Position numbers and translations under genes: made by a program. Below are positions 1-20,000 of a DNA stretch of 20,000 bases, piece by piece (the stretch's first letter is position 1; each line of letters starts with the position of its first letter). Origin of the DNA: an uncultured virus (IMG/VR IMGVR_UViG_3300024179_000001) (taxonomy: Duplodnaviria; Heunggongvirae; Uroviricota; Caudoviricetes); the IMG/VR virus record IMGVR_UViG_3300024179_000001. One strand, written 5' to 3'. The notes under the pieces were generated by a model. That model ran no database searches, was not told the origin of the DNA, and worked only from the letters and a program-made list of their open reading frames with translations.

Positions 1-132
1 TTCGCGTGGCCAGCGGATTTCAAGGGAGCTTCACCGATTGCTCCGGATGCGACGCTCGTCAGCTTGCAGAGTTTTCGTCGTGACGGTTCATTCTGGCGCG
101 CGGAGAGCCCGGGCATCACGATGGCCCCGTAA
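1..132 (+). CDS. 3' end of a partial gene, probably a phage tail fibre or other virion protein
   Basis: Frame 1 is open from base 1 to TAA at 130-132: FAWPADFKGASPIAPDATLVSLQSFRRDGSFWRAESPGITMAP*. The F-x-W-P...F-x-x-D-G-x-x-W pattern resembles C-terminal modules of phage tail-fibre proteins (recognised by eye). Not in the ORF track. Confidence 0.6.
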   Translation, partial: FAWPADFKGASPIAPDATLVSLQSFRRDGSFWRAESPGITMAP

Positions 133-216
133 AGATTTTCACTCGCGCTTCGATGGGCGAGGAAAGTAAGACACTGCAGTCCTTCTCAGGTTGCAGACAA
201 TAGAAGGAGCCACACC

Positions 217-594
217 ATGGCCGTCGCAACACTTACAGTTAAGGCTGGATTCGTACAGACCAACGACCAGCGTACGCAAAGCTTCTGGGGCACGTTTCAG
301 GTCAGCGCGCCGACGGACATTTATCCGGCCGGTGGGTTCTCTCTGGATCCTGTGCTTCTGGCAGCTCTCCAGCCGAACACTAATACTGGTTTAATCGGAT
401 TTCAGGCGAACGGTTCCGGTGCTGGTTATATCTATCAGCGCATTCCGTCCACCGGAAAACTGATGGTCTTGCAGGTTCCTTTCAACGGATCGCTCACCAC
501 GGCGGCGCCGCTGATTCAGTATCCGTCCTCGGCGGTGTCTGGCATCTGGGCTGACGTGATCAGCTTTGAAGCCATCTATCTCCGCAACGCGTAA
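217..594 (+). CDS. Small phage virion structural protein (125 aa), function unknown
   Basis: Strong SD AGAAGGAG at 202-209 before ATG 217. Beta-rich G/S/T sequence with YPAGG and GYIY...GKL motifs. Sits among structural genes. Confidence 0.75.
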   Translation: MAVATLTVKAGFVQTNDQRTQSFWGTFQVSAPTDIYPAGGFSLDPVLLAALQPNTNTGLIGFQANGSGAGYIYQRIPSTGKLMVLQVPFNGSLTTAAPLIQYPSSAVSGIWADVISFEAIYLRNA

Positions 595-1055
595 GCCTTA
601 TTTTCGGCTTGTTGCTTCCATGTGGCCCAACGGCAATTACTCGGCTCGTAGTTGCCGTTGGGGTCCGGGAATCTATCCAAGGTGAGACGCGGAGATTTTT
701 TGTGACCCATATCAGCGAGAAAATTCGCAAAGGACTTTTTCCATCTGGAGCACACAGTTACACCTCTACCCCCGTACCTATGGAAGCTGTGATAGTTGGG
801 ATTGAGACAACGCTGAAGCATGTTCCAGTAAGAAAAATATTCCGGCTTTCCCCAGTGCCCGTGTTTAGAAAGCGCGCATCCGCAACTCGTTGTTTGTTTC
901 CCAACGAGATTTTTCCCGAGAGCGCGCTTTGTCTTTCCGCAATCGCAGAGGCACAACCAGAGAGATCCACTTTTTCTATTTGGGATCCGTTTGATTACCA
1001 CAAGTCTTCCAAAGCGGAGTCCTTGAAGTGTGAGCGCTTTTCTCATTTCGTGCAT
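576..1055 (-). CDS. Free-standing phage HNH homing endonuclease with an N-terminal Cys-rich (CxCxCG...SCGC) region
   Basis: Motifs GRLVVIKR, WLCLCDCG, TTSCGC, YWNMLQRCLNPN, YGGRGVTVCSRW, FLADMG and LTLDR...NGNYEPSNCRWAT match the common phage HNH family. Likely start is ATG 1055 or 1046 rather than 1082. AT-richer than its flanks, antisense, and overlaps the 217-594 gene by 19 nt. Confidence 0.9.
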   Translation of the reverse strand: MHEMRKALTLQGLRFGRLVVIKRIPNRKSGSLWLCLCDCGKTKRALGKNLVGKQTTSCGCALSKHGHWGKPEYFSYWNMLQRCLNPNYHSFHRYGGRGVTVCSRWKKSFANFLADMGHKKSPRLTLDRFPDPNGNYEPSNCRWATWKQQAENKAYALRR

Positions 1056-1110
1056 TTTATAAGGGAGTAGTAAAATTAACAACGCTGATCAGCCTTTCAT
1101 CTCTGCACCG

Positions 1111-4100
1111 ATGGAGTTGATGGGTGGCCTCTACACCGAGGCCACGCCTGAATCGCTCCCGCTCGGCGCGAGCCCCCGCGTAATCAACTGCGATTTCATT
1201 CTTGGTTCGGTCTTTCAGCGCCCGGGAAAACAAAGCCAGTTCTACTTCGGAAGTATCTTCATCGAAAATGTCACGAAGTCGGCATCGAGTGTCGCTGGAT
1301 CGCAGGCGCCGAATGAAGCCGCCTGGTCGAACCCAACCAACGCCACGAAAAATATTCCCGGGACGTACGCTTCCGTCACACTGAATTTCGGTGGTGGAAC
1401 TGGTCCGATTGGTCCTGTCGATAAAGTGGTGACCGCTGGATCTAACATTGCTCAGGCAGGATTTTCCGTTGGTCCCATCACGCCGAGTCTCGCCGGAGAG
1501 TGGGCTTTCCTCGCTCTCCATTCGTCTGGAACTGTTTACGCCCCGCCTTTTGCCGTATTCGATTCCGTGAGCGTCCAAGCCAGCGCACTGTTCACTGGCC
1601 TGAATCCACTTACTGCCACTGGAAATTTCGGTGGACCGAATCAGACATGGGCTGCTGTTCTCGCTTCGTTTTTCACAAACGGATCCACGCCAGTAGTCTT
1701 TAACACCAATCACGGAAACAACTCGGCGTCTTTCCCAGTGTCGTCGATGGTGGTCAATCTTCCGCACTCCACGGTTCAGGGGCATACGATTCTCGTGACC
1801 TGTTACGACCTCGGTGCCGTCAACCTAAACAACGTCACTGCCGTAGACAACCTCGGGAACAACTACACGCTGATCGGGAAGTCGCAGAACGGCATTGGCG
1901 GCCGCGACATGTTCCTGCTTGGCCTTGCGAACATCCCTGCGGGAATCACTCAACTCACGATCTCAAAGTCTGGTGGTTTTGCCAGTGCCCAGTGCGAAGT
2001 GCAGGAAATCGCTAACTTCTCTTCTCCACCACCGACCCCGGGAGTGAGCCAGATCCTGCAGTCGCTGAATTTCGCATTCAACATTCCATCGACACAATTC
2101 GTGCTCGGCATGGAAGTCGAAGTCAGCGGGAATCAATCGGACCTGACGGCCAACTCGATCCTGACGGCGACAGTCGTCAGCGGTGGCGTTACATCGGCGC
2201 CTGTCACTGGCCAGCTTCCTTCTGTCGATGGGACTATCGCCCTCGGCCAGCCAACTTCCAACTTCGGATTTGCACTGACTCCTGCGTTCATGAACAGCCC
2301 GAACCTCACCGTGAATCTGGTGGCGAGCGCATCGGCGGCGAACGCTGTTTTCAATATCTATGCCGTGAAACTGAAAGTTTTCGTGACACCAAATCCGCCG
2401 CCGAATTTCAACTACATCAAAACCTTTGCAGAGACGGGCGGCGAAGTACTGACGCTGGTGCTCGGAAGCGACGGAGTCTTCTACCAGGAAGACGCGATCA
2501 ATGCTCCGGGCGTGCTCACGGGTGTCGCCACGAATATTCTTCCGGATAGTTTCGCGCAGTCCGCGACAGTCGATGATCGTGAGTTCATCGCGGTATCGAA
2601 TCTGCAGAACGGCACCGATGTACCGCGCACCTACACGCCGCCGAATTTCGACCGCCTGAGCCAAGTGGGCCCGGGAGCTCCTCCGGCGGCTTCCTCTTCC
2701 TCGGCGTCGAATACCATCGTGTCGATCACGCAGCCGACGGTGAAAAGCGACGTCGCTAATCCGGGACATCTTTCCGGGATCCTGTGGTCCGCTGGCCCCG
2801 GATCCACCGCTGTTGGAAACGTGCTCACCGTTTATTACGTCGGAACAAATTTCCAGCCAGTTGCTGATCCGGATCTCGTGATCGGCGCCGGCGTGCAACT
2901 TGCCGGAATCGATCCCTCACAATTCGCTGGCCAGACGGTGAACGGCGATTACATCATCACGAGCGTTGGACAGGGCGTTCCTCCGGGCGCGGCACAATCG
3001 CGCTGGTATTTCACGGTGACGATGCCGTCGTCGCAGTCGATCAATCAGGCGAATCACATCGAAGCGCACGCACCGACAGGAACCTATCAGGTGACAACGG
3101 CAACCCTGACGGCTGCCGCGCAGGTTCCGAATCTCGAGGTTGGCGGCACGCTGCAGATTTCCGGGACCGGAGGAGCTCCGACTGCCGGATACGATGGCAG
3201 CTGGACCGTCAACGCCACGCCGAACGCTTCGCAGCTGCAGATCACGAGCACGGTGCTCAATGGAAACGTGGCGACGTACGGATTCAACCTGATCACGGGA
3301 ACGAATCCTGTCGTCGGCCAGATCATCACTGTCAGCGGAACACTGAACGGAAACGGGATCTTCAACGTCCAGAATCAGGCGATCTCCGCGACGTCGCCGG
3401 GATCGTTCTCGATCACCTTGTTCGGTCCCAATGTTTCGTCAGCTGCTGAAACCGGATCAGGCATCATTTTCGGAACGATCTTCCAATTTGATCCTCTGGT
3501 GATCGTCGGCAACAGGCTCGGTGGGAATCTCGTCACCACCGGGATCATCAGCGCTGGCGTGCGGAAGGTCTGCTACTCGTTCCTGACGCGAAATGGCTTC
3601 ATGACCCAGCCTTCGCCGATTACGACTTTCGATGTGACATCCGGCGCCGCGAACCTGCAGATCTCGAATCTCCTGACCGGACCCTCGAACGTGATCGCCC
3701 GGGTGATCCACCTGACGGCCGCGAACGGCAGCAACTTCTACAATATTCCCGAGCCCGTTCCGATAAATGACAACGGAACGATTGTCACCAGCACATCGAC
3801 GTGGGTGAACGACAACACGACCCAGAGCGTCACACTGAGTTTTTCAGATGGTGTGCTCCTCGCCGCCGATCAGATCGATATTCAGGGAAACAACCTCTTC
3901 GAGAATATCGAGCTCGGAAGCTGTGTTGCGCTGATCCCTTACAACCAGCGGATCTTCGCCGTCGGCGAACAGAACAAGATCACAAATCTGCTGAACTTTT
4001 CCTTTGACGGCGGCATTACGGCCTCCGGAGCTCCAGCCGGATGGACCGTGGATCCAACGAACGGCGCCGGCGGCAGCGTTGTGAGCTCGCCCGTTTTCGG

Positions 4101-6713: not shown

Positions 6714-6734
6714 GTTAAGGTGAGGAGCAGCACT

Positions 6735-7397
6735 ATGGCCCGAATCACGATCAACCCAGTCATCGACATGGAAACGCTCCAACTCGTCGGCCACGACGGG
6801 CAGTACGAAATCGATCACATCCCACTTCGTTTTGATCGCGGCGCCACGGGGCAAGCGAAGAAGCTCGGCCAGCAGGCCGGAGAAACCGGAGCAACGGCTG
6901 GATCAGAAGCTGCCGTTGATCGGTCTTCTGTTATTCCCGGGCTCGTTCGCGACGTCAATAATCCAACCGGATTCACTCCCGAGCAACGAAACGACATGCT
7001 CGTGAAGCAGCAGGAAGCGGCTGGCGGTGGAAACGCAGCCGTGACCGGAGAAGGGCGCCTCGCGGCATTGCGTACGCGCACCGCCGGAGGTTTTGCGCCG
7101 GCGCTCGCCGAAGCCGCGCGATCCAAGGGACGCACACTCGCGACAGGTGCTCTCGACGTAGCGAACCGCAACGCGGAGCTCGAGCAACAGAAGCAGGCGC
7201 AGGCGCGCCAGCAACTGCTCGGACTGTACGGAGTCGATACATCGAACATGCTGAAATCCATGGGCCTGCAGTCTCAGGATCTTCAGGATCAGCTCGCCGC
7301 TGGCCGTCAGGGCTGGCTGCAGAACACCGAAGGCGTGCTGGGTACCCTCGGAAATCTCGGATCGAGTGCAGCTGGAGTTAAGAAGGCGTTCGGCTAA
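6735..7397 (+). CDS. Putative small internal virion / DNA ejection protein (220 aa)
   Basis: SD GAGGAG at 6722-6727 supports ATG 6735 rather than 6720. The body is A/G/Q-rich and helical with a Gly-rich hydrophobic tail (GVLGTLGNLGSSAAG). First of three genes after the GNAT. Confidence 0.7.
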   Translation: MARITINPVIDMETLQLVGHDGQYEIDHIPLRFDRGATGQAKKLGQQAGETGATAGSEAAVDRSSVIPGLVRDVNNPTGFTPEQRNDMLVKQQEAAGGGNAAVTGEGRLAALRTRTAGGFAPALAEAARSKGRTLATGALDVANRNAELEQQKQAQARQQLLGLYGVDTSNMLKSMGLQSQDLQDQLAAGRQGWLQNTEGVLGTLGNLGSSAAGVKKAFG

Positions 7398-7406
7398 GGG
7401 AAACTG

Positions 7407-9272
7407 ATGGCTCTCTCTCTCGATGACATCATCGCAGCTCCGACAGATCCCGATCTCCTGAACCAGCATCTTCAGGGTCTGGGACTTTTGAAGCGGCCAG
7501 AAGAAACGGCGCCCGTGCAGGTTGCGCCGATGTCTACGGTGACGCCGCATTCCGACGTCGCTCCGATGTCACCAGTAAAAACGGAAACAGGAACAGCTGC
7601 ACCGCTGACTGGCCTGAATCGTGAGCTCGCCCTCGGTGCAACTGTTCAACCGAACAAGCCAGTGGCGCACATGGCGGATCTTTCCGGCGGGGCAGATATC
7701 GGCGCTGCCGCAACGCCCGAAGGTGGAGTCAGCGTGAAGCCAATGACTCTTCCGAATCTTACGCACACGGAAAAGATGGCTCTGCCGCAAACTTCTCCCG
7801 GAGTCTCTGACGTGGGCAGCGCGGCCTTCACGCGCAATGAGCTCGAGCGGCTCGAGGAGCAGAAAGCGCATCCGTGGGGAACTCCTGAAAATCATCCGGG
7901 CACTCTCGGGAAGATTGGCCACGTCGCTGGCAAGATCGGAAATATCGCGCTCGATGTTTTGGCGCCTGGTATCGGCGTCAATATTCCGGGAACGGATCTG
8001 AACCGGATGGCGAACGAATCCGAACTGAAGCGTGAGCTCGCTTCGCGCACCGCTGCGGAGGGCCAAGCGAAGAATCTCGCCTCCGAAGAAGAGGCTCGTG
8101 ACGTCACTACCGCGGAGGGCCGTGAACGATTGAAGAAAATGCAGACCGAGCAAAGCCTCGAGAAGGATATCGAAGGCAATATCACCGGATGGAAAGGCCC
8201 TGACGGAAAACTTCACTCGCTCGATGAAGAAGGAACTCCGCAGGCGATCAAGGACATCGCCGCTGAAACGACAGCGAAGCAGACGAAGCCGACGATCGAG
8301 AAGATGGACAACGGCGACATCGTTGCCGTCACTCCGGGAGTCAACGGAGCTCCGGCGAAATCGCAGGTCGTTTATCACGGGGATCCTAAGCTCGAAACCG
8401 AACTCACGCAGCGCACCGTCGGCGGTCAGGAGCACAAGATCCTGATCAACAAGAAAACGGGCGAGGACATCAAGGATCTCGGCGCATTTAAGACCGAGGT
8501 CTCTCCGACGGCAGCGATCAACAAGGAAAAGGCCAACGAGCGAGTTGTTCTGGCCTACGACAAGAACAACAAGGCGCACCTGATGTCGAGGGGTGACGCC
8601 GAAGAAGAAGGAATGCAGCACATCACTGCGGCGCAGTCCGGTGACATCGATAAAGCCAAGACTCACCACGTCGTGCTGAACACGCTGCAGACGCAACTCA
8701 ACAGCGTTGTGAACTCAAGCAAGGCGCTCGATCAGGGATACGCGCAACGCTCGATCATCGCCAGTGCTCTCAGCCATCCGACGAACACGACGGTCGATTC
8801 CTTGATGCGTGCGGCCGTCCTTTCTGGCGCGACGGAAGAAACGAAGAATTATGTGCAGGCGGTGATCGCGCTCCGCGAAGCAGGGCTCGCACTTCCGAAG
8901 GAGATCACGGGTGGATCGCGGATTGCGGAAGTTCAAGCGTCGGCGTTGTGGGCAACGATGCCTTCGGCTGCTTCACTTAACAGCAAGTACGCGCTCAAGC
9001 AGGCCAAGAAGTTTCAGCAGGACATTGATCGTCTGCGCGAACGTGCACCTGACGTTCGGGGAATGAATATCGTGGATCCGGACGACATGATTAAGAGCAA
9101 GGGTGAGGAGAAACAACACACAACTGGTGGTGGTGCCGCTCCAGCTCCTCCCCCGGGTAAAGTGACTGTGAATGATCCTGAAGGCAAACCGCATTTCGTG
9201 AACGAAAACGCTGTCGATGATTTCCTGAAAGATCCGAAGTACAAGGGATGGAAGCGTGGCACAGGACGATAA
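7407..9272 (+). CDS. Putative internal virion / ejection protein (621 aa)
   Basis: Follows an AAGGG SD. Low-complexity P/T/A N-terminus, a Gly-rich segment GTLGKIGHVAGKIGNIALDVLAPGIG, coiled-coil-like stretches, and a C-terminal VTVNDPEGKPHFV motif. The position fits podovirus ejection proteins. Confidence 0.7.
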   Translation: MALSLDDIIAAPTDPDLLNQHLQGLGLLKRPEETAPVQVAPMSTVTPHSDVAPMSPVKTETGTAAPLTGLNRELALGATVQPNKPVAHMADLSGGADIGAAATPEGGVSVKPMTLPNLTHTEKMALPQTSPGVSDVGSAAFTRNELERLEEQKAHPWGTPENHPGTLGKIGHVAGKIGNIALDVLAPGIGVNIPGTDLNRMANESELKRELASRTAAEGQAKNLASEEEARDVTTAEGRERLKKMQTEQSLEKDIEGNITGWKGPDGKLHSLDEEGTPQAIKDIAAETTAKQTKPTIEKMDNGDIVAVTPGVNGAPAKSQVVYHGDPKLETELTQRTVGGQEHKILINKKTGEDIKDLGAFKTEVSPTAAINKEKANERVVLAYDKNNKAHLMSRGDAEEEGMQHITAAQSGDIDKAKTHHVVLNTLQTQLNSVVNSSKALDQGYAQRSIIASALSHPTNTTVDSLMRAAVLSGATEETKNYVQAVIALREAGLALPKEITGGSRIAEVQASALWATMPSAASLNSKYALKQAKKFQQDIDRLRERAPDVRGMNIVDPDDMIKSKGEEKQHTTGGGAAPAPPPGKVTVNDPEGKPHFVNENAVDDFLKDPKYKGWKRGTGR

Positions 9273-12200
9273 GTACGGCCTTGAACCAGCGGATGAAAAG
9301 TATGGCCTGTCTCCCGCAGGCACCGCTGCAGCTACGGCTGAACCTCCGTCCGATGAAGAGATCGAGGCGGCGTACGGCAAAGACGTCTCTCCGAAGATCC
9401 GCGCAGCCGTAAAAAGCGGCGTCGCGAAAATGCAGCCGCCGACGAAGTTCGAGCAAGATCGGCCGCAGATAAAAGAAAATTACGGATTCACTCCCGGCAA
9501 TGTAGCCAAAAATGCAGTGGAAGGCGCGGCTGGCCTCGTGAAGTCAGGCGCCGAGGGCCTCTACGACGTTGGATTCGTACAGGGCAAGGACGAAGAGGGA
9601 AACATCAAGCACGGCGTCGGTGGACTTGTCGGGATCAACGACAAAGGCGAGTTCGCTCCCATGGAGCGCCTCAACGCACTCACGCAGAAATATGTTACGG
9701 ATCCCGCAGTCGCCGAATGGAATAAAGGAAGTGAAGAGGGCGGCTTTGCTGGCATTGGTCACAAAGCGCTGTCGACGATTCCACTGGTCGGCCCATGGGC
9801 CGGAAGCATCGGTGAGCAAGCTGGAACCGGAGACATCGGTGGTGCCACTGGTCAGGTCGCTGGCCAAGTCGCTCTTGGTGAGCTCGCTCATCACGCTCCG
9901 GCGCTCGCCGACAAAGTTGTGCGCGGAACGCCACTCACGGAAGCCGGAAAACTCGCGGCTGCGAAGGAACAGGCGCTGACTGTCAAAAAGCCGACGATGA
10001 CGGAGACGGAATATTCCGCGAAGGTACAGGCTGCGCTTCCGGATCTGCAAAAAGTCGCGCAGGACAATACCGGAAAGATCAAAACGCCGCGCGACGCCGT
10101 CGGCGCTATCAATCGCCGCGTTCAGGAAATGGAAGCGCCAATCGGCGAGCACCTGAAGGGTCTGAACAGGCCAGAAGACATGGTGCACGTCGATCAGTAC
10201 CACGATCAGATCGACAAAGCCATCGACGCGGAGATGGCGAAGCATCCCGGGCAGCTGACGGCCGCAGAAATCGAGAAGGCCAAGACCCAGATCGATAAAT
10301 TTGTCGGCGATCAGCCGAAAACTCTCGAAGAAGTCGAAGGAAACCGCAAGCGGTTGAATCAGGACGCGGAGGATTACTACAAATCGCGGCCAGCCGACAA
10401 GCGCGTGATGGATTCTTCCGACGCAACAGCGATTGCACAGCGTGCGGCGGCGAATGCGATCCGTTCGATCCTCTACGGAGACGACGCGAACCCCGGATTG
10501 CTCGAAAAAGCTGGCGTGACAGCCGTCGATCAGGCTGGGAATCAGGTTCCGCTCCGCGAATTCCGCCAGAAAGTCGGAAACCTTCTCGAAGTGCGCGATC
10601 ACTTCGAGGATGCAATTGTCCGCGCGGAACAAACCGGGAACTGGAAGGCGTTCGACAAGCTGCACAGCGGTCCTTCTTTGGCTGCTGGTGGTCTTGGCGC
10701 CATCGGTGGTCTCGTGGCTGGTGGTCCGCTTGGCGCGCTCTTTGGAACGCTCGCTGGTGAGGGTGTGAAGGCGTGGGGCGACTACCTGCGCTCGAAAAAT
10801 CCGAATCTGAACGTCCAGAAAATGTTCCGGAACCTCGAGGCCACCGGAAAACCGAACACGATCGAGCCCGTGACGCGGGATATCCAGCATCAGTACCAAG
10901 ACGCCATCGGACCACAGACATCGCAGCACGCCGAACCGATTGGACCCGCGCGGCCTCCGGGAAACTTCCAGATGGAAGACCTCCAGCCGAATCAGGACGC
11001 CCTTTGGCAGCAGCAGGTGGGCCAGCCACCGCCGCTCGAGACCGGAGCTCCTTCGCCGGGGCGCCACGTAGAGCCCATAGGACCGCAACCACAGGCCGAA
11101 GCGCCCCTCGGACCCATCCAAGGTCAGCAGATCCCTTTGCACCTCCCCAGCGGCCCGGAAGAGGCTCCTCTGTTCGGTATAGGGCTTCCTGAGTCTCGGA
11201 AGGCACCTGCGGGAGCTCCAGAAGCCCCTGCGGCGCCCCCGGCAGCCGTCGGAGGGCCCGGGCGGGAAGGTACGCTGGGCCGGATCGACATGACGCCCAA
11301 GAGGACGGCAGTCGAGGACCTGAAAGTCGGGGATACGTTCGTCGACGACAAGGGCGATCCGCGCCGGATCACGGATATCACCGAGGACGGCACGGTGAAG
11401 ACCGCCGATCACACGATGCGCGATTACAAGGCCGACGAGATCGAGCACCTCGGCGAGATCAACTCTCCACGGGCGCAGCTGGCGCGCGGCGGCGTGTTCC
11501 ACGCTGGGCCTGAGGAAGACAGGTACGATCTCGGAGAAATTGGCGGCACGGAAACTCCGCGTGGCGAAGAAGTGGCGCCGATGGAGCGCCCGACGGAAGA
11601 GAAGAAAATCGGAGAGCCGGAGAGGAAAGAATTCCTCGACGCCATTAAAAAGCTCGGTGGAGACACTGAGCTCGCGGACGAGCAGTGGCATGAGATGAGC
11701 GAAGAAGAACGCGCTCACGCGCTCGACAGGTATCGTGGCCAGCTCGAAGGGAAGGGACCAAGGACTGAGCCCGTCCAGTCTGTCGAAAAGGCCATCGATG
11801 CGCTAAAGGAACGCGTCAAGGATCGATCACACAAGGGTCAGGAACGCGATTATCAGGTGGCTCCGTCTGGCGAAGTAAATCCGCGCCAACTCTACCAGAC
11901 GACGTTCCTCCTCGACGACGGATCCGCGCTGCAGGGCGACATGGGAATCAAATCGCACATGCAGCTCGCGCGTGAAGTCGGCCAGCATCACTTGAACGAT
12001 GCGAATGCGATCCGCATCGTCACGCCAGATTCGTACGAGCTCCATGGAATGCCGTCCGAAGCGCAGCTCGCGGAAATGAATCGTTACTTCCGTGAGTTGT
12101 CGCGCGCAGATCGGCAGAACGTCCACGACGCCGGCTATGTGTACTGGGATTTCTATCCGAAAGAAGTGACCGGATACTCGGCTGACGCGGTGCACGCGGA

Positions 12201-13335
12201 TCACGCGACTGGAGCTGGATCGTTCTCCGATTTCCGCAGGGCTATCGACGAATATTATTCTCCGACGACAACCGTCAAGGTTTCTCCTGACGGATCCTCG
12301 GTGAAGTTGATGGAGAATCCGCTCAATGTGAAAGGCACCGGAGAGAAGGGGCGCGTCAGCACCGCAGATCTCCTGAAGGCCTTCAATAAGTACACGAAGC
12401 AAACCATCGGCAAGCTGTCGATGGAAAAAGCGGAGCCAGCAGAAATGGTCGAACGCGCAAAATCTCTCGCTGAAGATGAAGCGAAGTATCAGCTCGCACG
12501 GGACAACAGCGGCGCCGCCTGGTACACGAAGCAGATGGACGAGCATGATGCCGTAGCGCAACAGATGCGCCCCGATCTGCGGGATCCCGCGAAGCTGAGT
12601 CTTTTCAAAATGGCCGAGGCGGTTCTTTCCGCAGGCCAGAAGCCGTACGGAAATTTCAAGTCCGCGATGAAGGCGTGGGACGGATACGTGGACACCGGGA
12701 AATTCCCCGAGCGGAATCCGGAGACAGGGAAATCGTGGGGCCCGAGATCCGCTGCAGCTTACGGAAACGCGCTCGGCATGCTCAATAATCTGATCGAAGA
12801 GCATGGCGAGAAAGGCGCATCGGACTGGTTGCTGTCCGAGCATCCAGTCAGTGAGTTGCGGAAATACAACGAAAATGTTTCGGGCAAAATGGATTCGCAA
12901 CGTCCCGGAGTTCTGATCCTCGGCGAGAAGCGTGGACTTTTCGCGCAAAACCTCCACAAGATCGAAAGCGCGTTCACTGCGGACATGTGGGTGGCGCGAA
13001 CTTGGAACCGCTGGATGGGAACTGCGGAGGTCGATCCGAAAACAGGCGAGATCGCAAGCGATGCCCCGCGCAACGACTCCGAACGCGCGCTGATGCGCGA
13101 GACGTTCGACGCGACAGCTGAAAAGCTGGGATTGTCGACGAGCGCCCTGCAGGCCGTGCTCTGGTATTACGAGCAGGCGTTGCACAACGCGCACGGTGTG
13201 CCGAAGGAAAGCTGGAGCTTCTCAGACGCGGCGAAAAGGGCTTCGGACGAAGAGGCGGGAATTGCGACGACGACAAAGAGCGGGAAAGCCGTAAAGCCGA
13301 AAGCTGCTGCTACTTTGTCGCCTGTCCGTCAGTGA
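9256..13335 (+). CDS. Large multidomain (polyvalent) internal virion protein with a C-terminal HhH-GPD DNA glycosylase-like domain
   Basis: 1359 aa, GTG start overlapping the previous gene. Gly-rich hydrophobic segments (e.g. LAAGGLGAIGGLVAGGPLGALFGTLAG), a Pro-rich linker, a small VEDLKVGD beta-barrel-like module, an FLLDDG..SH..AIRI module, and a C-terminal domain with WY...AVLS...GEK...F..NL...TADMW..R...LQAVLW. Confidence 0.75.
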   Translation: MAQDDKYGLEPADEKYGLSPAGTAAATAEPPSDEEIEAAYGKDVSPKIRAAVKSGVAKMQPPTKFEQDRPQIKENYGFTPGNVAKNAVEGAAGLVKSGAEGLYDVGFVQGKDEEGNIKHGVGGLVGINDKGEFAPMERLNALTQKYVTDPAVAEWNKGSEEGGFAGIGHKALSTIPLVGPWAGSIGEQAGTGDIGGATGQVAGQVALGELAHHAPALADKVVRGTPLTEAGKLAAAKEQALTVKKPTMTETEYSAKVQAALPDLQKVAQDNTGKIKTPRDAVGAINRRVQEMEAPIGEHLKGLNRPEDMVHVDQYHDQIDKAIDAEMAKHPGQLTAAEIEKAKTQIDKFVGDQPKTLEEVEGNRKRLNQDAEDYYKSRPADKRVMDSSDATAIAQRAAANAIRSILYGDDANPGLLEKAGVTAVDQAGNQVPLREFRQKVGNLLEVRDHFEDAIVRAEQTGNWKAFDKLHSGPSLAAGGLGAIGGLVAGGPLGALFGTLAGEGVKAWGDYLRSKNPNLNVQKMFRNLEATGKPNTIEPVTRDIQHQYQDAIGPQTSQHAEPIGPARPPGNFQMEDLQPNQDALWQQQVGQPPPLETGAPSPGRHVEPIGPQPQAEAPLGPIQGQQIPLHLPSGPEEAPLFGIGLPESRKAPAGAPEAPAAPPAAVGGPGREGTLGRIDMTPKRTAVEDLKVGDTFVDDKGDPRRITDITEDGTVKTADHTMRDYKADEIEHLGEINSPRAQLARGGVFHAGPEEDRYDLGEIGGTETPRGEEVAPMERPTEEKKIGEPERKEFLDAIKKLGGDTELADEQWHEMSEEERAHALDRYRGQLEGKGPRTEPVQSVEKAIDALKERVKDRSHKGQERDYQVAPSGEVNPRQLYQTTFLLDDGSALQGDMGIKSHMQLAREVGQHHLNDANAIRIVTPDSYELHGMPSEAQLAEMNRYFRELSRADRQNVHDAGYVYWDFYPKEVTGYSADAVHADHATGAGSFSDFRRAIDEYYSPTTTVKVSPDGSSVKLMENPLNVKGTGEKGRVSTADLLKAFNKYTKQTIGKLSMEKAEPAEMVERAKSLAEDEAKYQLARDNSGAAWYTKQMDEHDAVAQQMRPDLRDPAKLSLFKMAEAVLSAGQKPYGNFKSAMKAWDGYVDTGKFPERNPETGKSWGPRSAAAYGNALGMLNNLIEEHGEKGASDWLLSEHPVSELRKYNENVSGKMDSQRPGVLILGEKRGLFAQNLHKIESAFTADMWVARTWNRWMGTAEVDPKTGEIASDAPRNDSERALMRETFDATAEKLGLSTSALQAVLWYYEQALHNAHGVPKESWSFSDAAKRASDEEAGIATTTKSGKAVKPKAAATLSPVRQ
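9265..9318 (+). repeat. Tandem 27-nt coding repeat (DDKYGLEPA / DEKYGLSPA)
   Basis: Two degenerate copies at the N-terminus of the 1359-aa protein, visible in both DNA and protein. Confidence 0.7.
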
Positions 13336-13480
13336 TCTTCTTGAGCTTCGGGACGTAGTCCTTGCGAGCTGCACCCATGGCCTCACTGAACTTTTCTGGC
13401 GTGGGCATCTGTCCGGACTTGATGAGTTGCTGGGCAATATTGCGGAGTTCCGAAGGCGTCAGTTGTTTCTCGTTGTCCAT
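13310..13480 (-). CDS. Small 56-aa helical protein, convergent with and overlapping the end of the polyvalent gene
   Basis: Translated by hand: MDNEKQLTPSELRNIAQQLIKSGQMPTPEKFSEAMGAARKDYVPKLKKITDGQATK*. SD GGAGG (13490-13486) lies 5 nt before ATG 13480, with a TACAAT -10-like hexamer at 13502-13497. Shorter than any ORF in the supplied track. Confidence 0.8.
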   Translation of the reverse strand: MDNEKQLTPSELRNIAQQLIKSGQMPTPEKFSEAMGAARKDYVPKLKKITDGQATK

Positions 13481-13485
13481 GGATT

Positions 13486-13502
13486 CCTCCTGTCGAATTG
13501 TA
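13486..13502 (-). promoter_or_regulatory. -10-like box plus SD for the 56-aa antisense gene
   Basis: The minus strand reads TACAAT-tcgaca-GGAGG-aatcc-ATG. No convincing -35 element. Confidence 0.5.
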
Positions 13503-13514
13503 CTCCGGAAAGTC

Positions 13515-13606
13515 GCGCTGTGCCGATCACTGTTACTGGGTGGCCCTTAGTCGCCGCCGACTTCCGTCAGCGAAGGGTGCCAATGGATCGGGCGTTTCCC
13601 CAGCGC
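13515..13606 (-). ncRNA. Candidate structured RNA or leader (long irregular hairpin with a GGAA tetraloop); family not recognised
   Basis: Nested helices on the minus strand: GCGCTG/CAGCGC, CCGATC/GATCGG, CCCTT/AAGGG and CGCTGAC-GGAA-GTCGGCG. Lies in the largest non-coding gap of the window. Confidence 0.35.
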
Positions 13607-13700: not shown

Positions 13701-13898
13701 ATGGCCATTCCCGTCGAGATCACGGTAGAGAAGGCGCTTGACCAGATCGCAGCAAGGAAACGCGTCCCCATCGGGATCCTCTCGTACGACATGGAGAAAG
13801 AGACGCTGGTGATCGAGCTCGTGGGCCAGATCCACCCGGATGAAGTGAACGCCCTCCTCATAAAGCTCGGAATCGAAGCGAACTTCACAGAAAAATGA
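13701..13898 (+). CDS. Hypothetical protein (65 aa), first gene of the GT operon
   Basis: Typical codon usage. Its stop is coupled to the next start through ATGA at 13895-13898. Confidence 0.7.
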   Translation: MAIPVEITVEKALDQIAARKRVPIGILSYDMEKETLVIELVGQIHPDEVNALLIKLGIEANFTEK

Positions 13899-15772
13899 AA
13901 ATTGCAATTGTCACAAACCTGAACGGAATAGGTTTGCAGCGCGACTACGAGCTCCTGCGCGATTTCCTCCAGCGTCTTGGGCACATTGTCGACGGGATCC
14001 AGTGGGACGGTCCAATCGATGAAGAAATTCAAGCATCGATACCGTACGATCTCGCGATCTTCCTTGAGGTGATTCCCCGGAACTTCCTCGAGCTCGCTCC
14101 GGTGAAGTGGGCATTCCTGAATCCGGAGTGGTGCAAGCCGGATGTGATCAAGATGGCCGAGCGGCACATCGACAGGATCTTCGCAAAGACGCACGAAGGC
14201 CAGAGGATCCTCGAGGGGACATTTCCGGGCAAAGTTTTCTATACGGGCTTCCTGACGCGCGATCAATTCACGCCGGCGATAAAACGCCAGAAATGGTTCC
14301 TGCACATCGGGGGAAATTCTTCGATGCGCGGGACACAGGCTGTGGTCGACGCATGGAAATGGAAAAAGGACGGCTTTGAGCTTCAGTGCAAGCTCTTCGT
14401 CGTCTCTTCGGTCTTGCAGGATAAGCCGAATCTTCTAAACGTCACCTACATCGAACGCGCGACGGAAGAAGAGCTCTACAGTCTGCAGAACCAGTGCATG
14501 TTCCATATCTATCCGAGCGGCACCGAGGGCTTCGGTCATGCGCTCCACGAATCGCTGAGTGTCGGCGCTGTCCTACTCGCTACGGATGCGCCGCCGATGA
14601 ATGAAATTAGCAACGCGTACCGGATGAAGGCGAAGAAGGTCGGCAAGTACAATCTTTCGGATGTCTATGAAGTGGACGCTATCGAGATCTTTGAATCGGT
14701 GCAAGCGGTCCTGACCGTCTATGATGGACCGCCCCAGTCGTGGCATTTCCCGCGAAAAGAATTTGAATCGCTGAACGCGGAATTCGCGACGCGATTCGAG
14801 AAGGAACTGCTTGCCATGGAGCCGGGAAAGAAAGCTCCAGTGGTCCGCACCGCGAAAACGAAACCGAGCATCGCGTTTATCGGAAATTTCAAGGCCAGCG
14901 AGAGCACAGAGAACATGATCCGCTGGGCGCTCGAGGAACGTCTCGGCTACGACGTCGAGCAGTTGCAGGAAAACGAAGTGAATCTGGCAGCGATCCGGAG
15001 CGCGTGTCTTTGGAACGACGCTCTCTTGTGGGTGAAGACTCCAAACTGGCTGCAGGTGACGAACCGTGAGATGGAGGAACTGCTCGAGGAGATCAAAATT
15101 CCGTCGTTCTCGATTCACCTCGACAAGTTCTGGGATATCACGGAGAGAGAGCCGCAGATCGGCGTGCATCCTTTCTGGAAGACCGATTTCGTTTTTACGG
15201 CCGACGGATCCGCGCAGGACAGATTCAGGGAACGCGGAGTGAATCACATCTGGATGAAGCCAGCGGTGAGTGAAGTCTACTGCCACCCAGGCTGGACGTG
15301 GGATATGTACCGCTGCGACGTCGGCTTCGTTGGAGCAAAGGACTACCACGCGCAATATCCCTTCAGGAAGCAGCTCGTCGAGTTCCTCGAGAAGACCTAC
15401 AAGGAACGCTTCCAGCACATCACAGGCCTGCGCGGCCACGGCCTGAACGATTTCTATGCGAGCTGCAAGGTTGTCGTCGGTGACTGCATCTTCGCCGGGA
15501 CGGAGAATTATTGGAGTGATCGTCTCCCTGAAACTGTCGGCCGCTACGGCTATCTCCTCCACCCCGATGTCGAGGGAATCGACATCCCTGTGAATGTATA
15601 TGGAGCACAGGAGCTTGATCATCTCCAGAACCGCATCGAGAGTTGCTTGGTTACAAATGAGCGGATCAGGAGAGACTGGATTGAAAATTGCGCGGAACAT
15701 GTACGGAAGTACGATACATGGACAGCGAGAATGCGCTGGATCCTCGAGCAGGTAATGGATGGAGGTTCCTGA
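13895..15772 (+). CDS. Two-module GT-B glycosyltransferase: N-terminal GT4-like domain plus C-terminal CgeB/YkvP-like domain
   Basis: The N-module starts MKIAIVT and has HIYPSGTEGFGHALHESLSVGAVLLATDAPPMNE (the E-x7-E GT4 motif). The C-module starts SIAFIGN and has CDVGFVG...YPFRKQL...LNDFYASCKVVVGD...YWSDRLPETVG...HVRKYDTWTARM. Confidence 0.85.
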   Translation: MKIAIVTNLNGIGLQRDYELLRDFLQRLGHIVDGIQWDGPIDEEIQASIPYDLAIFLEVIPRNFLELAPVKWAFLNPEWCKPDVIKMAERHIDRIFAKTHEGQRILEGTFPGKVFYTGFLTRDQFTPAIKRQKWFLHIGGNSSMRGTQAVVDAWKWKKDGFELQCKLFVVSSVLQDKPNLLNVTYIERATEEELYSLQNQCMFHIYPSGTEGFGHALHESLSVGAVLLATDAPPMNEISNAYRMKAKKVGKYNLSDVYEVDAIEIFESVQAVLTVYDGPPQSWHFPRKEFESLNAEFATRFEKELLAMEPGKKAPVVRTAKTKPSIAFIGNFKASESTENMIRWALEERLGYDVEQLQENEVNLAAIRSACLWNDALLWVKTPNWLQVTNREMEELLEEIKIPSFSIHLDKFWDITEREPQIGVHPFWKTDFVFTADGSAQDRFRERGVNHIWMKPAVSEVYCHPGWTWDMYRCDVGFVGAKDYHAQYPFRKQLVEFLEKTYKERFQHITGLRGHGLNDFYASCKVVVGDCIFAGTENYWSDRLPETVGRYGYLLHPDVEGIDIPVNVYGAQELDHLQNRIESCLVTNERIRRDWIENCAEHVRKYDTWTARMRWILEQVMDGGS

Positions 15773-16080
15773 TGCCGAAGTGCACAAAAGTTGACTGCGG
15801 AAACAAGGCCACCAAGGCCCTGAAGTTGATTTTCCGCAATGTGGCTGACGGTCCAGCGGTGAGCGCTTACGTCGCGCTGGTCGTCTGCGACGAGATCCAC
15901 ATGCCGGAGGAAGAAGTCGTCGAGTTCTACACGATGAACTTCGAGACGCTGTGCCTGTGCATCGATCAAGTGGGAAAGATCAAGCCGAACCTTGCACTCA
16001 CGAGATTTGCGTGGGTTCCTATCGCCGACGCGGAAGCGGAATGGACGAAGGCGATCAATGAAGCGAGGGAGAAACTATGA
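15772..16080 (+). CDS. Hypothetical protein (102 aa), possibly metal-binding
   Basis: SD GGAGG at 15761-15765 and the TGATG overlap place the start at 15772, not 15688. C-x4-C near the N-terminus and C-x3-H later. Confidence 0.7.
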   Translation: MPKCTKVDCGNKATKALKLIFRNVADGPAVSAYVALVVCDEIHMPEEEVVEFYTMNFETLCLCIDQVGKIKPNLALTRFAWVPIADAEAEWTKAINEAREKL

Positions 16081-16958
16081 TTCCGGTTATCTGGCACCAC
16101 TCGGACGGTTTCTGGGACTGTGCGTTTCCGAAATATATTCTCGATCACGCCGCTCGCTGCATGCACGTCGTCGGCCTCGACAAAGCGCCGATGTTTCTCG
16201 GACAAGATACCGTAGTGGTGGTTGTGCCTGGTCGGCACTCGGATCATCTCGATCAGTACGCCAGTCTGCGCGGAGTCGCAAGCGATTTCAAGAAAGTGAT
16301 CTACATCATCATCGGCGACGAAGAGGGCGTCTTCCAAGTCCGTGCGCTCCACAATGAGAACGCAAAGATCTGGTGGTTCATGCCGCCGTTCAATCCGAAG
16401 CAGGAAGTGGACCGCGTGGCGCCGAACGGATGGCCGACAAATGCGATCGAGATGATCGGTGAGGCGAGAAAAGCGAGCCGGGGAATCCGCAGCTTCGACT
16501 GGAGCTTCATGGGACAGGTGACGCACCGGAGGCGTGAGGAATGCGTCGCTGCCGCGAAGGATATCCCCCGGGGCCACCTTCTGTGCACGACTGGCTTCAC
16601 GAAGGGAGACACGCGAGAAAATTATTACGACGTCATGGTGAGATCCCGCGCGGTCCTTTGTCCTTCGGGGCCCTGCACGCCGGACTCGTTCCGGCTTGCA
16701 GAGGCCCTCGAGGCCGGATGCATGCCGATTGTCGATGACGCGACTCCGAACCCGCTTTATCCTCCGGGCTACTGGAAATACGTCTTCGCGAATCATCCGA
16801 TCCCATTTCCACTGGTCACCGATTGGAAAAATCTTCCTTTCATACTTGAGTTCTGCCGGGATAACTGGGAGCAGCGCATCGGCGCGTGCCGCCTCTGGTG
16901 GAAGAGCCAGAAGGAACGGATGATCGCGGAGATGAAGGAGGATCTCAGTGAAAAATAA
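16077..16958 (+). CDS. Exostosin / GT47-like glycosyltransferase
   Basis: WSFMGQ...YYDVMVRSRAVLCPSG...DSFRLAEALEAGCMPIV matches the GT47/exostosin signature (S.FCLCP.G...S.R..EAL..GCIPV). ATGA-coupled to the upstream gene. Confidence 0.85.
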   Translation: MIPVIWHHSDGFWDCAFPKYILDHAARCMHVVGLDKAPMFLGQDTVVVVVPGRHSDHLDQYASLRGVASDFKKVIYIIIGDEEGVFQVRALHNENAKIWWFMPPFNPKQEVDRVAPNGWPTNAIEMIGEARKASRGIRSFDWSFMGQVTHRRREECVAAAKDIPRGHLLCTTGFTKGDTRENYYDVMVRSRAVLCPSGPCTPDSFRLAEALEAGCMPIVDDATPNPLYPPGYWKYVFANHPIPFPLVTDWKNLPFILEFCRDNWEQRIGACRLWWKSQKERMIAEMKEDLSEK

Positions 16959-17712
16959 AATCACCGTTCTGATCCCGACGTCGCCGATTCCCGCGCATCC
17001 CTCGACGGACGTAATCGAAAAGGCGATCAACTCCGTTCGCCAGCATCTGCCGGATGTCCGCATCATCATCATGGCCGACGGCGTCCGCAAAGAGCAGGAG
17101 CACTACCACGACCAGTATCTCGAATACATCAAGAACCTCGTGGGGAAGTCGATCTTCCACTGGAAAAATATAGCGCTGATGCCGTTCACGGAGTTCATGC
17201 ACCAGGCGGCAATGACGCGCAAAGCGCTCGAGATGGTGGAGACGCCGCAGATCCTGTTCGTCGAGCACGACACGTTTTTCCTCGACGGCCTGCCGATTGA
17301 TTTCGAGGGTATCTCGAGAGTGATCGAGAAAGGCCACGCGAACATGGTCGGCTTCCATTGTCAGTGGGAGCCATGGGTGATCCCGGAACACGAGCACCTG
17401 ATGCTCGACAAGGAGCGCGCATACTTCGATGGCGTGCCGATGATCAGGACGTGGCAATGGAGCCAGAGGCCGCACGTCGCTTCGGCTGAGTTCTACCGGA
17501 TGATCCTCAGAAACCTTTTCAGCAAGAATTGCCGGACGATGATCGAGGACCGCATGCACGACGTGGTGCTGGGGACTCGCTTCGCTCTCGGCGATGCAGG
17601 CTGGAAAGAATGGAAGCTGATGTACTATGCCCCAACCGAAGGCGGCACCATCCGCAGGACGTGGACCGTCGATGGCCGGGGCGCGGATCCAAAATTTCCG
17701 ATGGAGTTCTAA
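16948..17712 (+). CDS. GT-A fold (GT2-like) glycosyltransferase, paralog 1
   Basis: ITVLIPT N-terminal strand, IIIMADG, and LFVEHD at the DXD-equivalent position. GTG start after GGAGG. Confidence 0.75.
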   Translation: MKNKITVLIPTSPIPAHPSTDVIEKAINSVRQHLPDVRIIIMADGVRKEQEHYHDQYLEYIKNLVGKSIFHWKNIALMPFTEFMHQAAMTRKALEMVETPQILFVEHDTFFLDGLPIDFEGISRVIEKGHANMVGFHCQWEPWVIPEHEHLMLDKERAYFDGVPMIRTWQWSQRPHVASAEFYRMILRNLFSKNCRTMIEDRMHDVVLGTRFALGDAGWKEWKLMYYAPTEGGTIRRTWTVDGRGADPKFPMEF

Positions 17713-17713
17713 A

Positions 17714-18460
17714 ATGACGACAGTATCGATTGCCGAAGCAAATTTCGTGAACCGCACGATCAACGGGAAATATCGGGTGAAGATGCCGGCGTACCTCGCC
17801 GCGCATGATTCTTTCGATAACTGGGAGCGCGAGCGGTTCGACAGTATGGAGCAGAACCTGAAGCAGGGCGACGTCCTCTTCGACGTCGGCGCCGAGACGG
17901 GACACATCTCGGCGATCTACGCGCGGTTTGTGGGCCCAGAAAACATGGTGATGTTCGAGTCGAATCCGGACAACTGGCAGAACATCTACGCGACGTGGCA
18001 GGCCGAAGGCCTTGCGGATCCGCTTGCTACGTTCTGCGGCCTTGTCAGCGATCAGACGCAGGTCCCGAAGACCAACTACGATCCCGCGTACATGGGAGCG
18101 TGGCCACTACCAGCGCTAACTGGGAGGGTGTGGACGCCGCGATCCTACCGCTACCTCCACGAGCACGCGCACAACACCGCGCAGATCACCCTCGATGATT
18201 TCTCTGCAACGAAGAAGATTATTCCGAAGGCGATCACCATCGACGTCGAGGGTGCGGAGTTCGAGGTGCTGCTCGGTGCCCGGGAGCTACTCAAAAAATC
18301 GCGGCCGCTCGTCTGGGTGAGTATCCATCCGGATCTGATGCTCGCGCACTACAAGCACTCGGTGAAAGAAGTTCTGAGCCTGATGGCGCTGCTAAATTAC
18401 AGGGATACGTGGCTCGCCAGCGACCACGAGATCCACTATCTCTTCAGGCCGCTGCTATGA
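17714..18460 (+). CDS. FkbM-family SAM-dependent methyltransferase
   Basis: VLFDVGAETG (motif I), VMFESNP, ITLDDF and TIDVEGAEFEVLLGA. The start is ATG 17714 (GGAG at 17703-17706), just after the upstream stop, rather than 17627. Confidence 0.9.
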   Translation: MTTVSIAEANFVNRTINGKYRVKMPAYLAAHDSFDNWERERFDSMEQNLKQGDVLFDVGAETGHISAIYARFVGPENMVMFESNPDNWQNIYATWQAEGLADPLATFCGLVSDQTQVPKTNYDPAYMGAWPLPALTGRVWTPRSYRYLHEHAHNTAQITLDDFSATKKIIPKAITIDVEGAEFEVLLGARELLKKSRPLVWVSIHPDLMLAHYKHSVKEVLSLMALLNYRDTWLASDHEIHYLFRPLL

Positions 18461-19194
18461 ATCTGCACGACGACATCACGGTGGTGATCCCCACCAGCCC
18501 CATTCCCAGTTGCCCGACAACCACGCTGATCGAGCAGACGATCAACAGTATTCGCGTCCATCTTCCCGACGTCGACATCCTCATCCAGGCGGATGGAGTT
18601 CGTCCGGAGCAGGAAAAATTCCGCGAGCCCTACAGGCTCTATATCGAAAGACTCGAGAACATCTGCTCCGATCCGGACAATAACATCACGATGATCGAGT
18701 TTGAGGAGTTCCATCATCAGGCGGCGATGATGAAGCGGAGCATCGGAGAAATCGGAACTCCGTTTCTCTTCTACGTCGAGCACGATCTTCCACTACTTCC
18801 GGATCCGATAGACTTCGTCGGAATGGTCCGGTTGCTTCGCTCCGGCGCCCTCAACCAGATCCGTCTGCACTACTGGTCGCAGATCCTCGACGATCATAAA
18901 TACTTAATGCTCGACGAGAAGCCGCTGTTGATGGACGGCGTTCCGATTGTCCGTACTGTGCAGTGGTCACAGCATCCCCACGTCGCGCGTGTAGACTTCT
19001 ACCAGCGGCTGATGGACGCGTTCTCTCCGAACTGCCGGACAATGATAGAAACTAAAGTGTACGGGCTGGTGCAGTCGGCGCGCTGGGACGATTACCGTTG
19101 CGGGATCTATGCCCCGGAGCCGAATCTCCGCAGGATCTACCACACGCATGGAAGGGAGGAAGAGCCTAAATGGGAAGAGAACTTTACATTCTGA
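18457..19194 (+). CDS. GT-A fold (GT2-like) glycosyltransferase, paralog 2
   Basis: Colinear with 16948-17712 (IPTSPIP, HLPDV, ADGVR, HQAAM, VEHD, LMLD, QWSQ.PHVA, NCRTMIE). Start is the ATGA overlap at 18457. Confidence 0.75.
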   Translation: MNLHDDITVVIPTSPIPSCPTTTLIEQTINSIRVHLPDVDILIQADGVRPEQEKFREPYRLYIERLENICSDPDNNITMIEFEEFHHQAAMMKRSIGEIGTPFLFYVEHDLPLLPDPIDFVGMVRLLRSGALNQIRLHYWSQILDDHKYLMLDEKPLLMDGVPIVRTVQWSQHPHVARVDFYQRLMDAFSPNCRTMIETKVYGLVQSARWDDYRCGIYAPEPNLRRIYHTHGREEEPKWEENFTF

Positions 19195-19526
19195 GATCCA
19201 CGAAAGGTCAATTCCTTCCCGGATCTCAAATCAGATTAATTCACGGCGGGGACCGAAGAGGGAAAAGAACTTCGACCTATGTTAGTTGGGTCGAAATGAA
19301 AAAGCGTTGTCTCAATCCGAATTGCGTCCAGTACAAGTATTACGGCGGCCGTGGAATTAAGATTTGCGCGAGGTGGCTGAAGTCTTTCAAAAACTTTCTC
19401 GCCGACATGGGTCATCGACCAGTAGGAAAAACCTTGGACCGTATAAAGACGAATGGACATTACAGGCCCTCAAACTGCCGTTGGGCCACGCACACGCAAC
19501 AGGTGCGAGGTAGGAGAAAGCGGTAG
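19170..19526 (+). CDS. Free-standing phage HNH homing endonuclease (118 aa)
   Basis: TYVSWVEMKKRCLNPN, YGGRGIKICARW, FLADMG and TLDRIKTNGHYRPSNCRWAT. AT-richer than its flanks and overlaps the upstream GT by 25 nt. Confidence 0.9.
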   Translation: MGRELYILRSTKGQFLPGSQIRLIHGGDRRGKRTSTYVSWVEMKKRCLNPNCVQYKYYGGRGIKICARWLKSFKNFLADMGHRPVGKTLDRIKTNGHYRPSNCRWATHTQQVRGRRKR

Positions 19527-20000
19527 ATGCTCACCCCGATACAGTTCGCCGACATGCAGGAAGTCTGGATGCAGGTCATGGTCAAGCATCCTGAATTCAC
19601 TCAAGCGCACGATCCTTCCGGGAACTACCACTCGGTGCGGGAAATCGTTCTCGGCGGATCCACGGGCTGGGCCGGAGTCCACCGGAGATTCACGCCGACT
19701 CCCGGGATGCGCGTAATGGATGTTGGAGCGAATGCCGGAATCTGGTCGGCCTTCTGTGCGGTGAAGGGCGCGTACGTCGTGGCCTACGAACCTTTCGCAG
19801 CTCCGTACCTGCTCCTGACGATGATGATCGAGAAGACGAAACTCGAGAAGCGGATCACCGCGCTCAATGCCGTTGTGTGGCACAAGGATGGCTGGCTCCC
19901 TTATATCGGTAACATCACTTCGCTCGATGGCGCCTGCACCGTTTTCAACGGAGGACTCGAGACGGCCGGAGTTCCGTGGACGCGGTCAGACATCGTCAAC
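19527..20000 (+). CDS. Second FkbM-like SAM-dependent methyltransferase (partial, runs off the window)
   Basis: Translated by hand from ATG 19527 (AGGAG at 19512-19516): MLTPIQFADMQEVW...MRVMDVGANAGIWSAFCAVKGAYVVAYEP...NAVVW... The frame is open to base 20000. Not in the ORF track. Confidence 0.85.
   Translation, partial: MLTPIQFADMQEVWMQVMVKHPEFTQAHDPSGNYHSVREIVLGGSTGWAGVHRRFTPTPGMRVMDVGANAGIWSAFCAVKGAYVVAYEPFAAPYLLLTMMIEKTKLEKRITALNAVVWHKDGWLPYIGNITSLDGACTVFNGGLETAGVPWTRSDIVN

Follow-up and report, generated by a model that had tools for sequence, protein, structure and literature searches.

A glycosylase-like HhH-GPD domain in a putative phage ejection protein and an adjoining candidate inhibitor gene

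The 20,000-nucleotide stretch of DNA analysed here (the window) forms the final 20 kb of a phage genome (G000) that is 66,446 bp long and has a direct terminal repeat of 127 nt. Its 1359-aa open reading frame at 9256..13335 (plus strand) encodes a putative polyvalent ejection protein in the gp16 position, of which the N-terminal ~540 aa are common to close relatives and the C-terminal domain is exchangeable. This domain (aa 1042-1335, 12379..13260, plus strand) is glycosylase-like, belongs by its model and fold matches to the HhH-GPD superfamily and is related to DUF7178. A 56-aa partner gene on the minus strand (13310..13480) overlaps the end of the 1359-aa gene by 26 nt and is a candidate cognate inhibitor. 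The reading that we tentatively favour is that the domain is an active guanine-type DNA glycosylase/AP lyase ejected as a weapon against non-self DNA, and that the neighbouring gene encodes its inhibitor.

An AF2 model of the domain, built from 84 sequences and covering the last ~295 residues, reached a pLDDT of 94.3. The HhH-GPD fold proposed in the preliminary description was supported when the model was compared with solved structures. Foldseek returned three Ogg2 enzymes as the best rows (probability about 1.0, E 0.05-0.09), and realignment to MjOgg (3knt) gave a VIA Z of 12.9 at an rmsd of 3.8 with 195/206 residues aligned. In an unbiased search against 48,161 solved chains, HhH-GPD-fold proteins took all of the first 23 places, led by the Ogg2 enzyme 3n0u (Z 12.0, rmsd 4.1, 200 residues aligned), and the next, unrelated row lay at or below about Z 4.5. 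Lower in the same search were NTHL1 (Z 9.4), AGOG (9.2), the queuine salvage enzyme (9.2) and the gp46 transferase (6.9). The fold tool cautions that Z values of this size arise by chance among helical proteins; here every top row belonged to one superfamily and the whole Ogg2 chain was covered. The model thus supports a two-lobed, all-helical HhH-GPD fold. The likeness to EndoIII and OGG1 suggested earlier is supported for the fold and for the Lys/Asp dyad, but the solved family nearest to the domain is Ogg2, not either of these. EndoIII was rejected as nearest kin: its Z of 8.5-9.4 falls short of the 12.0 reached by Ogg2, and the domain lacks Fe-S cysteines.

The putative catalytic residues lie within an Ogg2-aligned core of aa 1071-1322. 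K1225 (AAG, 12928..12930), the predicted catalytic lysine and by analogy the Schiff-base nucleophile, aligns with the Lys of the Ogg2 motif GYKEA, and the predicted catalytic aspartate D1243 (GAC, 12982..12984) aligns with the Asp of ILDxH. These two residues, their spacing of 18 and the LQAVLW segment at 13147-13164 were all found where the preliminary description had placed them; its interval for the domain, 12502..13230, is somewhat too short, since the model spans 12379-13260. A profile alignment with 27 Ogg2 sequences paired the Lys and the Asp with their Ogg2 counterparts, FxxN with FLRN, and Q1299/W1303 with the Asp/Trp of Ogg2. The residue-by-residue match depends on this alignment, which is weak in itself (E 0.0045 against 0.11 for the reversed profile; probability 7.7%), because the fold tools give ranges only. 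On this same weak alignment Q1299...W1303 (13150..13164) form a predicted pocket for a guanine-type base, at the positions of hOGG1 Q315/F319 and MjOgg D194/W198, the Gln being as in OGG1. According to the available text of PMC3397491, these residues act as guanine-face reader and stacking residue in those enzymes.

Both dyad residues are conserved in homologs, as the preliminary description required for its reading. Of the 92 proteins retrieved with aa 1030-1335 as query, 92/92 have K and 92/92 have D. A wider set, which extends down to 24% identity to the query and contains some contigs twice, had K in 275/275 sequences and D, R1248, Q1299 and W1303 each in 274/275, the exception for D being one gap. 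The loci of this set were picked by the pattern QA[VI]LW, so that the conservation of QAxLW is partly selected, whereas K and D lie outside the pattern; with these counts the conservation of the dyad is more than chance. Also nearly invariant is a WY motif (W1089, Y1090; 12520..12525), which is common to the DUF7178-type sister domain.

The domain departs from Ogg2 (MjOgg 3FHF/3KNT, Tm1821 3N0U, SsOgg 3FHG; NF002305) in several respects. The two share the fold, the Lys...Asp spacing of 18, FxxN after the Lys and a pocket helix with an acid or amide followed by Trp. In contrast, the window domain has ~10% identity to Ogg2, DxW for DxH, a partner gene and a place within a phage structural protein. 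Neither the canonical hairpin (L/P-G-h-G) nor a Gly/Pro-rich stretch was found, and an insertion of 25-40 aa takes the place of the hairpin. This does not exclude membership of the superfamily because the AGOG hairpin is non-canonical too (PMC3397491, available text). The same source gives the 8-oxoG sensor of Ogg2 as its C-terminal lysine, whose carboxylate senses N7-H. This lysine is absent here: Ogg2 residue 207 pairs with model residue 281 (F1322), from which the chain runs on with no conserved Lys. The domain is therefore predicted to work like Ogg2 without being a member of it, and specificity for 8-oxoG cannot be assumed.

Sequence libraries place the domain near DUF7178 (PF23802) and phrog_3842. 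Its matches to these were weak (E 0.004 and 17.5 bits for DUF7178, below the gathering cut-off of 27; E 0.0015 for phrog_3842), but 16/55 members of the window family match DUF7178, with a best E of 4.6e-9, and in the Atlas the best matches were all DUF7178 clusters. The window subfamily differs from DUF7178 in falling under the Pfam cut-off, in its length (~295 aa against ~193) and in having DxW for DTH. NCBIfam (at E 0.1, including NF002305) and PADLOC gave no match for the domain, PDB sequence searches with the domain and two profiles gave chance matches only and no solved glycosylase, and no significant alignment was obtained between a DUF7178-type profile and Ogg2 (E 0.41). A standalone relative, gp22 of Microbacterium phage Cece (L224 2980-3603), has a weak match to the sister domain (E 3e-4, 17% cover) and is named 'glycosylase' in GenBank; its annotators may have seen the fold.

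A full-library search at E 0.001 found the domain in 1,692 clusters, in carriers mostly of 1,000-4,000 aa and at varying positions along them. Other Pfam domains were present in 11/16 scanned carriers, including ART-PolyVal, LPD38, SLT, GGDEF, RadC and GNAT, and the viral structure matches of the domain were for the most part polyvalent proteins. Two carriers (P0143, P0167) also have a radical-SAM domain, one of them together with a HATPase domain. The window protein itself has a second small alpha/beta domain (11863..12288, plus strand) with few homologs; its poor model (pLDDT 60) matched no fold.

Gene order in several relatives points to a place in the virion. In two loci (L014, L029) the carrier gene lies 3' of the major head and tail genes, with an internal virion gene of phrog_418 on one side and one of phrog_6651 on the other, in L052 it is immediately upstream of phrog_6651, and in the cultured phage OANV1 the domain is within gp16 (2,986 aa), downstream of the tail tubular and lysozyme genes. 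Limnohabitans phage DC33 is another cultured carrier. In the window, the carrier is placed among virion genes by its order downstream of the terminase, and 225-aa and 621-aa genes (6720..9272, plus strand) stand, to judge by gene order, where the small and the middle ejection protein would be expected. Since these structural neighbours have no family matches of their own in Pfam, PHROG or NCBIfam, virion carriage in the window is deduced from gene order. A group with a different virion context counts against the ejection-protein reading: in L073 (5010-8144; also L068, L074, L075) the domain is in a ~1,000-aa gene between the small terminase and the portal. Co-injection, as suggested in the preliminary description, thus finds backing in relatives whose carriers lie between internal-virion-protein genes and, for the window, in gene order, and we consider it likely that the 1359-aa protein is carried in the virion. 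Among GTDB genomes the domain was found only on one 3.4-kb contig from a Terriglobales MAG, which is a weak hint of Acidobacteriota hosts.

Other features of the surroundings were observed. Just after the ejection module (window 13895-20000 and G000 1-3208) are glycosyltransferases (GT1/GT4-like, GT47/RXYLT1-like, GT2-like) and FkbM methyltransferases, possibly a pathway for virion or surface glycans, and the same glycosyltransferase cluster follows the module in L009, L203 and L204. A protein with the Acb2/Tad1 hairpin domain (E 1.7e-9), encoded at G000 28531-28746, might act as a sponge for the signalling nucleotides of defence systems. Two ORFs of the window are similar to HNH-type homing endonucleases, one by eye (576-1082, minus strand) and one with PHROG matches (19170-19526, plus strand).

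The partner gene of the window has an AGGAGG Shine-Dalgarno (SD) sequence 5 nt before its ATG (13486..13491, minus strand) and, upstream, a sigma-70-like promoter match by consensus (13497..13526, minus strand; 1 found against 0.2 +/- 0.4 in shuffles). Its homologs stand directly 3' of the domain in L001-L009 and beside the domain in 46/48 loci of the closest cluster. Where the loci are more distantly related, the partner overprints the carrier gene in the +1 frame, immediately past the invariant Trp. Such a +1 ORF followed the domain in 49/57 eligible loci (of 62), against 6.9% at control positions, and an SD-led one in 42/57 against 0.9%; in the +2 frame the count was 0/57. The loci compared are related and not independent, and as 26 of those in the 57-locus test form one clade they were clustered at 60% identity. 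The partner was then present in most members of 22/26 clusters, or of 18/26 by the stricter test, with controls at 10.6% and 0.9%. The +1 ORF tracks the domain even where the domain lies in mid-protein (L012, L058, L069, L072, L076). In the large clade, substitutions in the domain peak at frame-0 position 3 (0.53), and in the overlap the peak moves to position 1, the wobble position of the +1 frame (0.45 against 0.13). The same shift was seen in the six-locus L051 group; two small groups were uninformative. This pattern indicates that the +1 partner ORF is under selection in its own frame.

A further short partner family recurs across clusters, 12/16 groups having passed a leave-one-out test against shuffles and 4 having failed, and part of this score may stem from the frame-0 motif. 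It includes clusters first scored as partner-less, with ORFs of <33 aa. For some +1 ORFs the ATG falls in the codons of the conserved S-D-G/A residues and might be no more than a by-product of these. No clear homology links the three partner families (family 1 against family 2, E 0.3), and the Atlas gave no match for the 56-aa partner. Fusion of the partner to the C-terminus of carriers was also considered and dropped: an HMM found no match in the stored carrier proteins, and there was one 118-aa longer match only. In L008, the gene just 3' of domain and partner (11412-11846, minus strand) resembles NADAR by eye; NADAR reverses guanine ADP-ribosylation.

Complex prediction for the domain and the 56-aa partner scored 0.59, against 0.01 for the best of 3 controls, with runs agreeing in at least 83% of contacts and a partner pLDDT of at least 75. 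This is weak support: in a benchmark the mark was reached by 116/157 solved and 2/215 mismatched pairs, but 18/157 of the solved pairs and both mismatched ones reached it with scores at or below 0.60. A pass this low misleads in most cases, except where a pair is already likely on other grounds. The genomic coupling of domain and partner makes this pair likely beforehand, and we consider it rather probable that the partner binds the domain.

Four relatives (L201-L204), found via the upstream 621-aa gene, show how the end of the protein is exchanged. L202 has the same domain and inverted partner, and L201 is cut short. L204 shares its first ~1,000 aa with the window protein and then has a DUF7178 domain (55 bits, above cut-off), whose motifs are collinear with those of the window domain (E 0.002) and which is followed 3' by a different inverted gene of 55 aa. 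The family of this second partner occurs after the sister domain in 15/18 other loci, in 13 of them as SD-led +1 ORFs. L203 (11841-15149) has the same N-terminus as the window protein, in a gene split into 796 and 211 aa, and a different C-terminus which by eye we take to resemble GP88-type proteins. No HhH or DUF7178 domain was found in this 51%-complete record, yet a sister-type small gene is kept (E 2e-6), an orphan that argues against strict coupling of domain and partner. It is fused to a CKCG peptide, which in L204 is a separate ORF. A conserved N-terminus with an exchangeable C-terminal enzyme is thus seen in window/L202 against L204 against L203, and a cognate small gene adjoins each domain subfamily, each with its own partner family and with one orphan.

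In the mechanism that we propose, the protein would be packaged and ejected with the phage DNA into the host, where its last domain would flip a guanine-type base into the Gln/Trp pocket; the Asp would then release the base and the Lys nick the strand. The partner would block the enzyme where the carrier is mass-produced. Chemistry of this kind, with Asp-assisted base loss, a Lys Schiff base and a strand nick, is very probable, and the most likely target would be a guanine-derived base in the DNA of the host or of a rival phage. Attack is ranked first because an exchangeable enzyme, a cognate fast-changing partner and an orphan copy form the pattern of a toxin-immunity cassette such as that of the MuF toxins (PMC5576092); the preliminary description had listed attack last, and it is the finding of the partner gene that shifts the odds from repair towards attack. 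The weak point is how the phage's own incoming DNA would escape the enzyme. A modified guanine absent from the phage would solve self-protection but lessen the need for an inhibitor. A Pfam scan of the phage's own genome detected no base-modification pathway other than a C5 methylase. In this genome CTAG is counted 2 times against 108 expected on both strands, and CCWGG and several 6-base palindromes are also avoided. Two explanations of self-protection were looked for and not found: a 7-deazaguanine pathway (QueC in 0/49 carrier records, including 14 with a completeness of at least 90%), and an avoided recognition word common to the carrier groups, of which none was found despite strong palindrome avoidance.

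Next after attack we place entry-time repair, in which the injected enzyme would remove 8-oxoG/FapyG from packaged DNA and the small protein would be a chaperone, or a brake by which the mass-produced enzyme spares concatemers in the course of assembly. We regard this as unlikely but the most serious competitor: the closest fold is that of Ogg2 with AGOG near too, the pocket is of a guanine type, and the phage's own DNA would need no protection. The strong conservation of the domain, at 50-68% in unrelated carriers, also fits an enzyme that acts on a single fixed chemical substrate better, and counts against a weapon. Repair glycosylases are not known to require a cognate partner, however, and the cassette is exchanged like an effector in L204 and L203; the loss of the 8-oxoG sensor lysine (PMC3397491, available text) speaks against repair as well. 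More doubtful still is that the domain excises a base mark set by a host defence on incoming phage DNA, such as a modified guanine, or processes abasic sites that defence glycosylases leave behind, with host repair restoring the genome. Polyvalent proteins have been proposed to counter defence at entry (PMC5512222, as far as available), a preprint anticipates pre-packaged countermeasures (10.1101/2025.10.29.685425, available text), and phage Amethyst encodes a distant standalone relative in a group of small genes close to an OCR-like gene. Yet no linked defence system was found, PADLOC gave no match for the domain, a Gln that reads N1/N2 would probably leave no room for a bulky N2 adduct, and the partner is left without explanation.

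Least probable, and in our judgement very unlikely, is a non-hydrolase, either a transferase of the PaMx11 gp46 type that modifies bases or a protein that shields phage DNA covalently on entry. While gp46 has the same fold (Z 6.9-7.3) and DNA methylases are frequent in polyvalent proteins (PMC5512222, as far as available), gp46 ranks under every glycosylase family except AlkA 3ogd. The available text of PMC11472151 proposes a cysteine mechanism for it, whereas the family alignment of the window domain (275 sequences) has no conserved cysteine. The Lys/Asp dyad is moreover intact, and the Pfam scan of the own genome found no hmU/5-PmdU pathway genes. The enzyme might also be real while the small gene is an unrelated passenger that encodes, for instance, a minor structural component or a regulator of the ejection module, an improbable case whose share overlaps with the repair, counter-defence and transferase readings. 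The L203 orphan, the low complex score (0.59) and the lack of clear homology among three partner families would fit it, but the ORF tracks the domain and not the gene end, and each domain subfamily has its own partner family. Against it also stands a search by the small protein, of low sensitivity and the only test not selected by the domain, in which 4/4 viral contigs found carry the domain.

Several described systems resemble the attack cassette that we favour. The phage polyvalent proteins of Iyer et al. 2017 (PMC5512222) are, in the available text, large virion-module proteins with exchangeable enzymatic domains, and the homologous carriers here contain the polyvalent-type domains ART-PolyVal, LPD38, GNAT and RadC. 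The available text mentions no nested partner genes; 'glycosylase' is absent from the main text as far as available, and in the supplements the domain may go by an LPD name. The polymorphic MuF toxins that temperate phages encode (PMC5576092, available text) likewise combine a virion-linked carrier, a variable C-terminal enzyme and a small downstream gene, but the window system has no MuF domain, an HhH glycosylase as effector and a partner family that is usually +1-overprinted. A Pfam scan of the own genome detected no DNA polymerase, primase or integrase. Dag1/Dag2 and END nucleases (10.1101/2025.10.29.685425; PMC12191111, both as far as available) also use an HhH fold in phage-host conflict and sense modified bases, e.g. 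7-deazaguanine; those are host-encoded, whereas the window domain is phage-encoded and probably injected. Glycosylases have recently been shown to serve bacteria as weapons against phages. The same preprint describes host HhH glycosylases and predicts pre-packaged countermeasures. The available text of Iyer 2021 names T4 endonuclease V only. Our literature search, which for Iyer 2017 covered the main text, found no paper naming DUF7178 and nothing on the domain, the nested gene or phage-injected HhH enzymes. An HhH-GPD glycosylase in a polyvalent protein is of a known kind; the partner-gene architecture is unreported.

In summary, it is possible, though we regard it with considerable doubt, that these loci represent an undescribed, widespread class of injected HhH glycosylase toxins with overprinted +1-frame immunity genes that move with them as one cassette. 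We are equally hesitant in proposing that podovirus-type phages of soil, freshwater and marine bacteria use this class to cut guanine-type bases from host or rival DNA. The domain occurs in about 1,700 phage-protein clusters and yet falls under the Pfam, NCBIfam and PHROG cut-offs, and an injected, phage-borne glycosylase counterpart is predicted in the defence literature and was not found in our literature searches. With a domain of 295 aa and a partner of 56 aa, the question lends itself to a direct test in E. coli. Should the partner prove to be an inhibitor, its families may provide a set of natural glycosylase inhibitors, and a check of the +1 frame after effector domains may expose hidden immunity genes in other polyvalent proteins.
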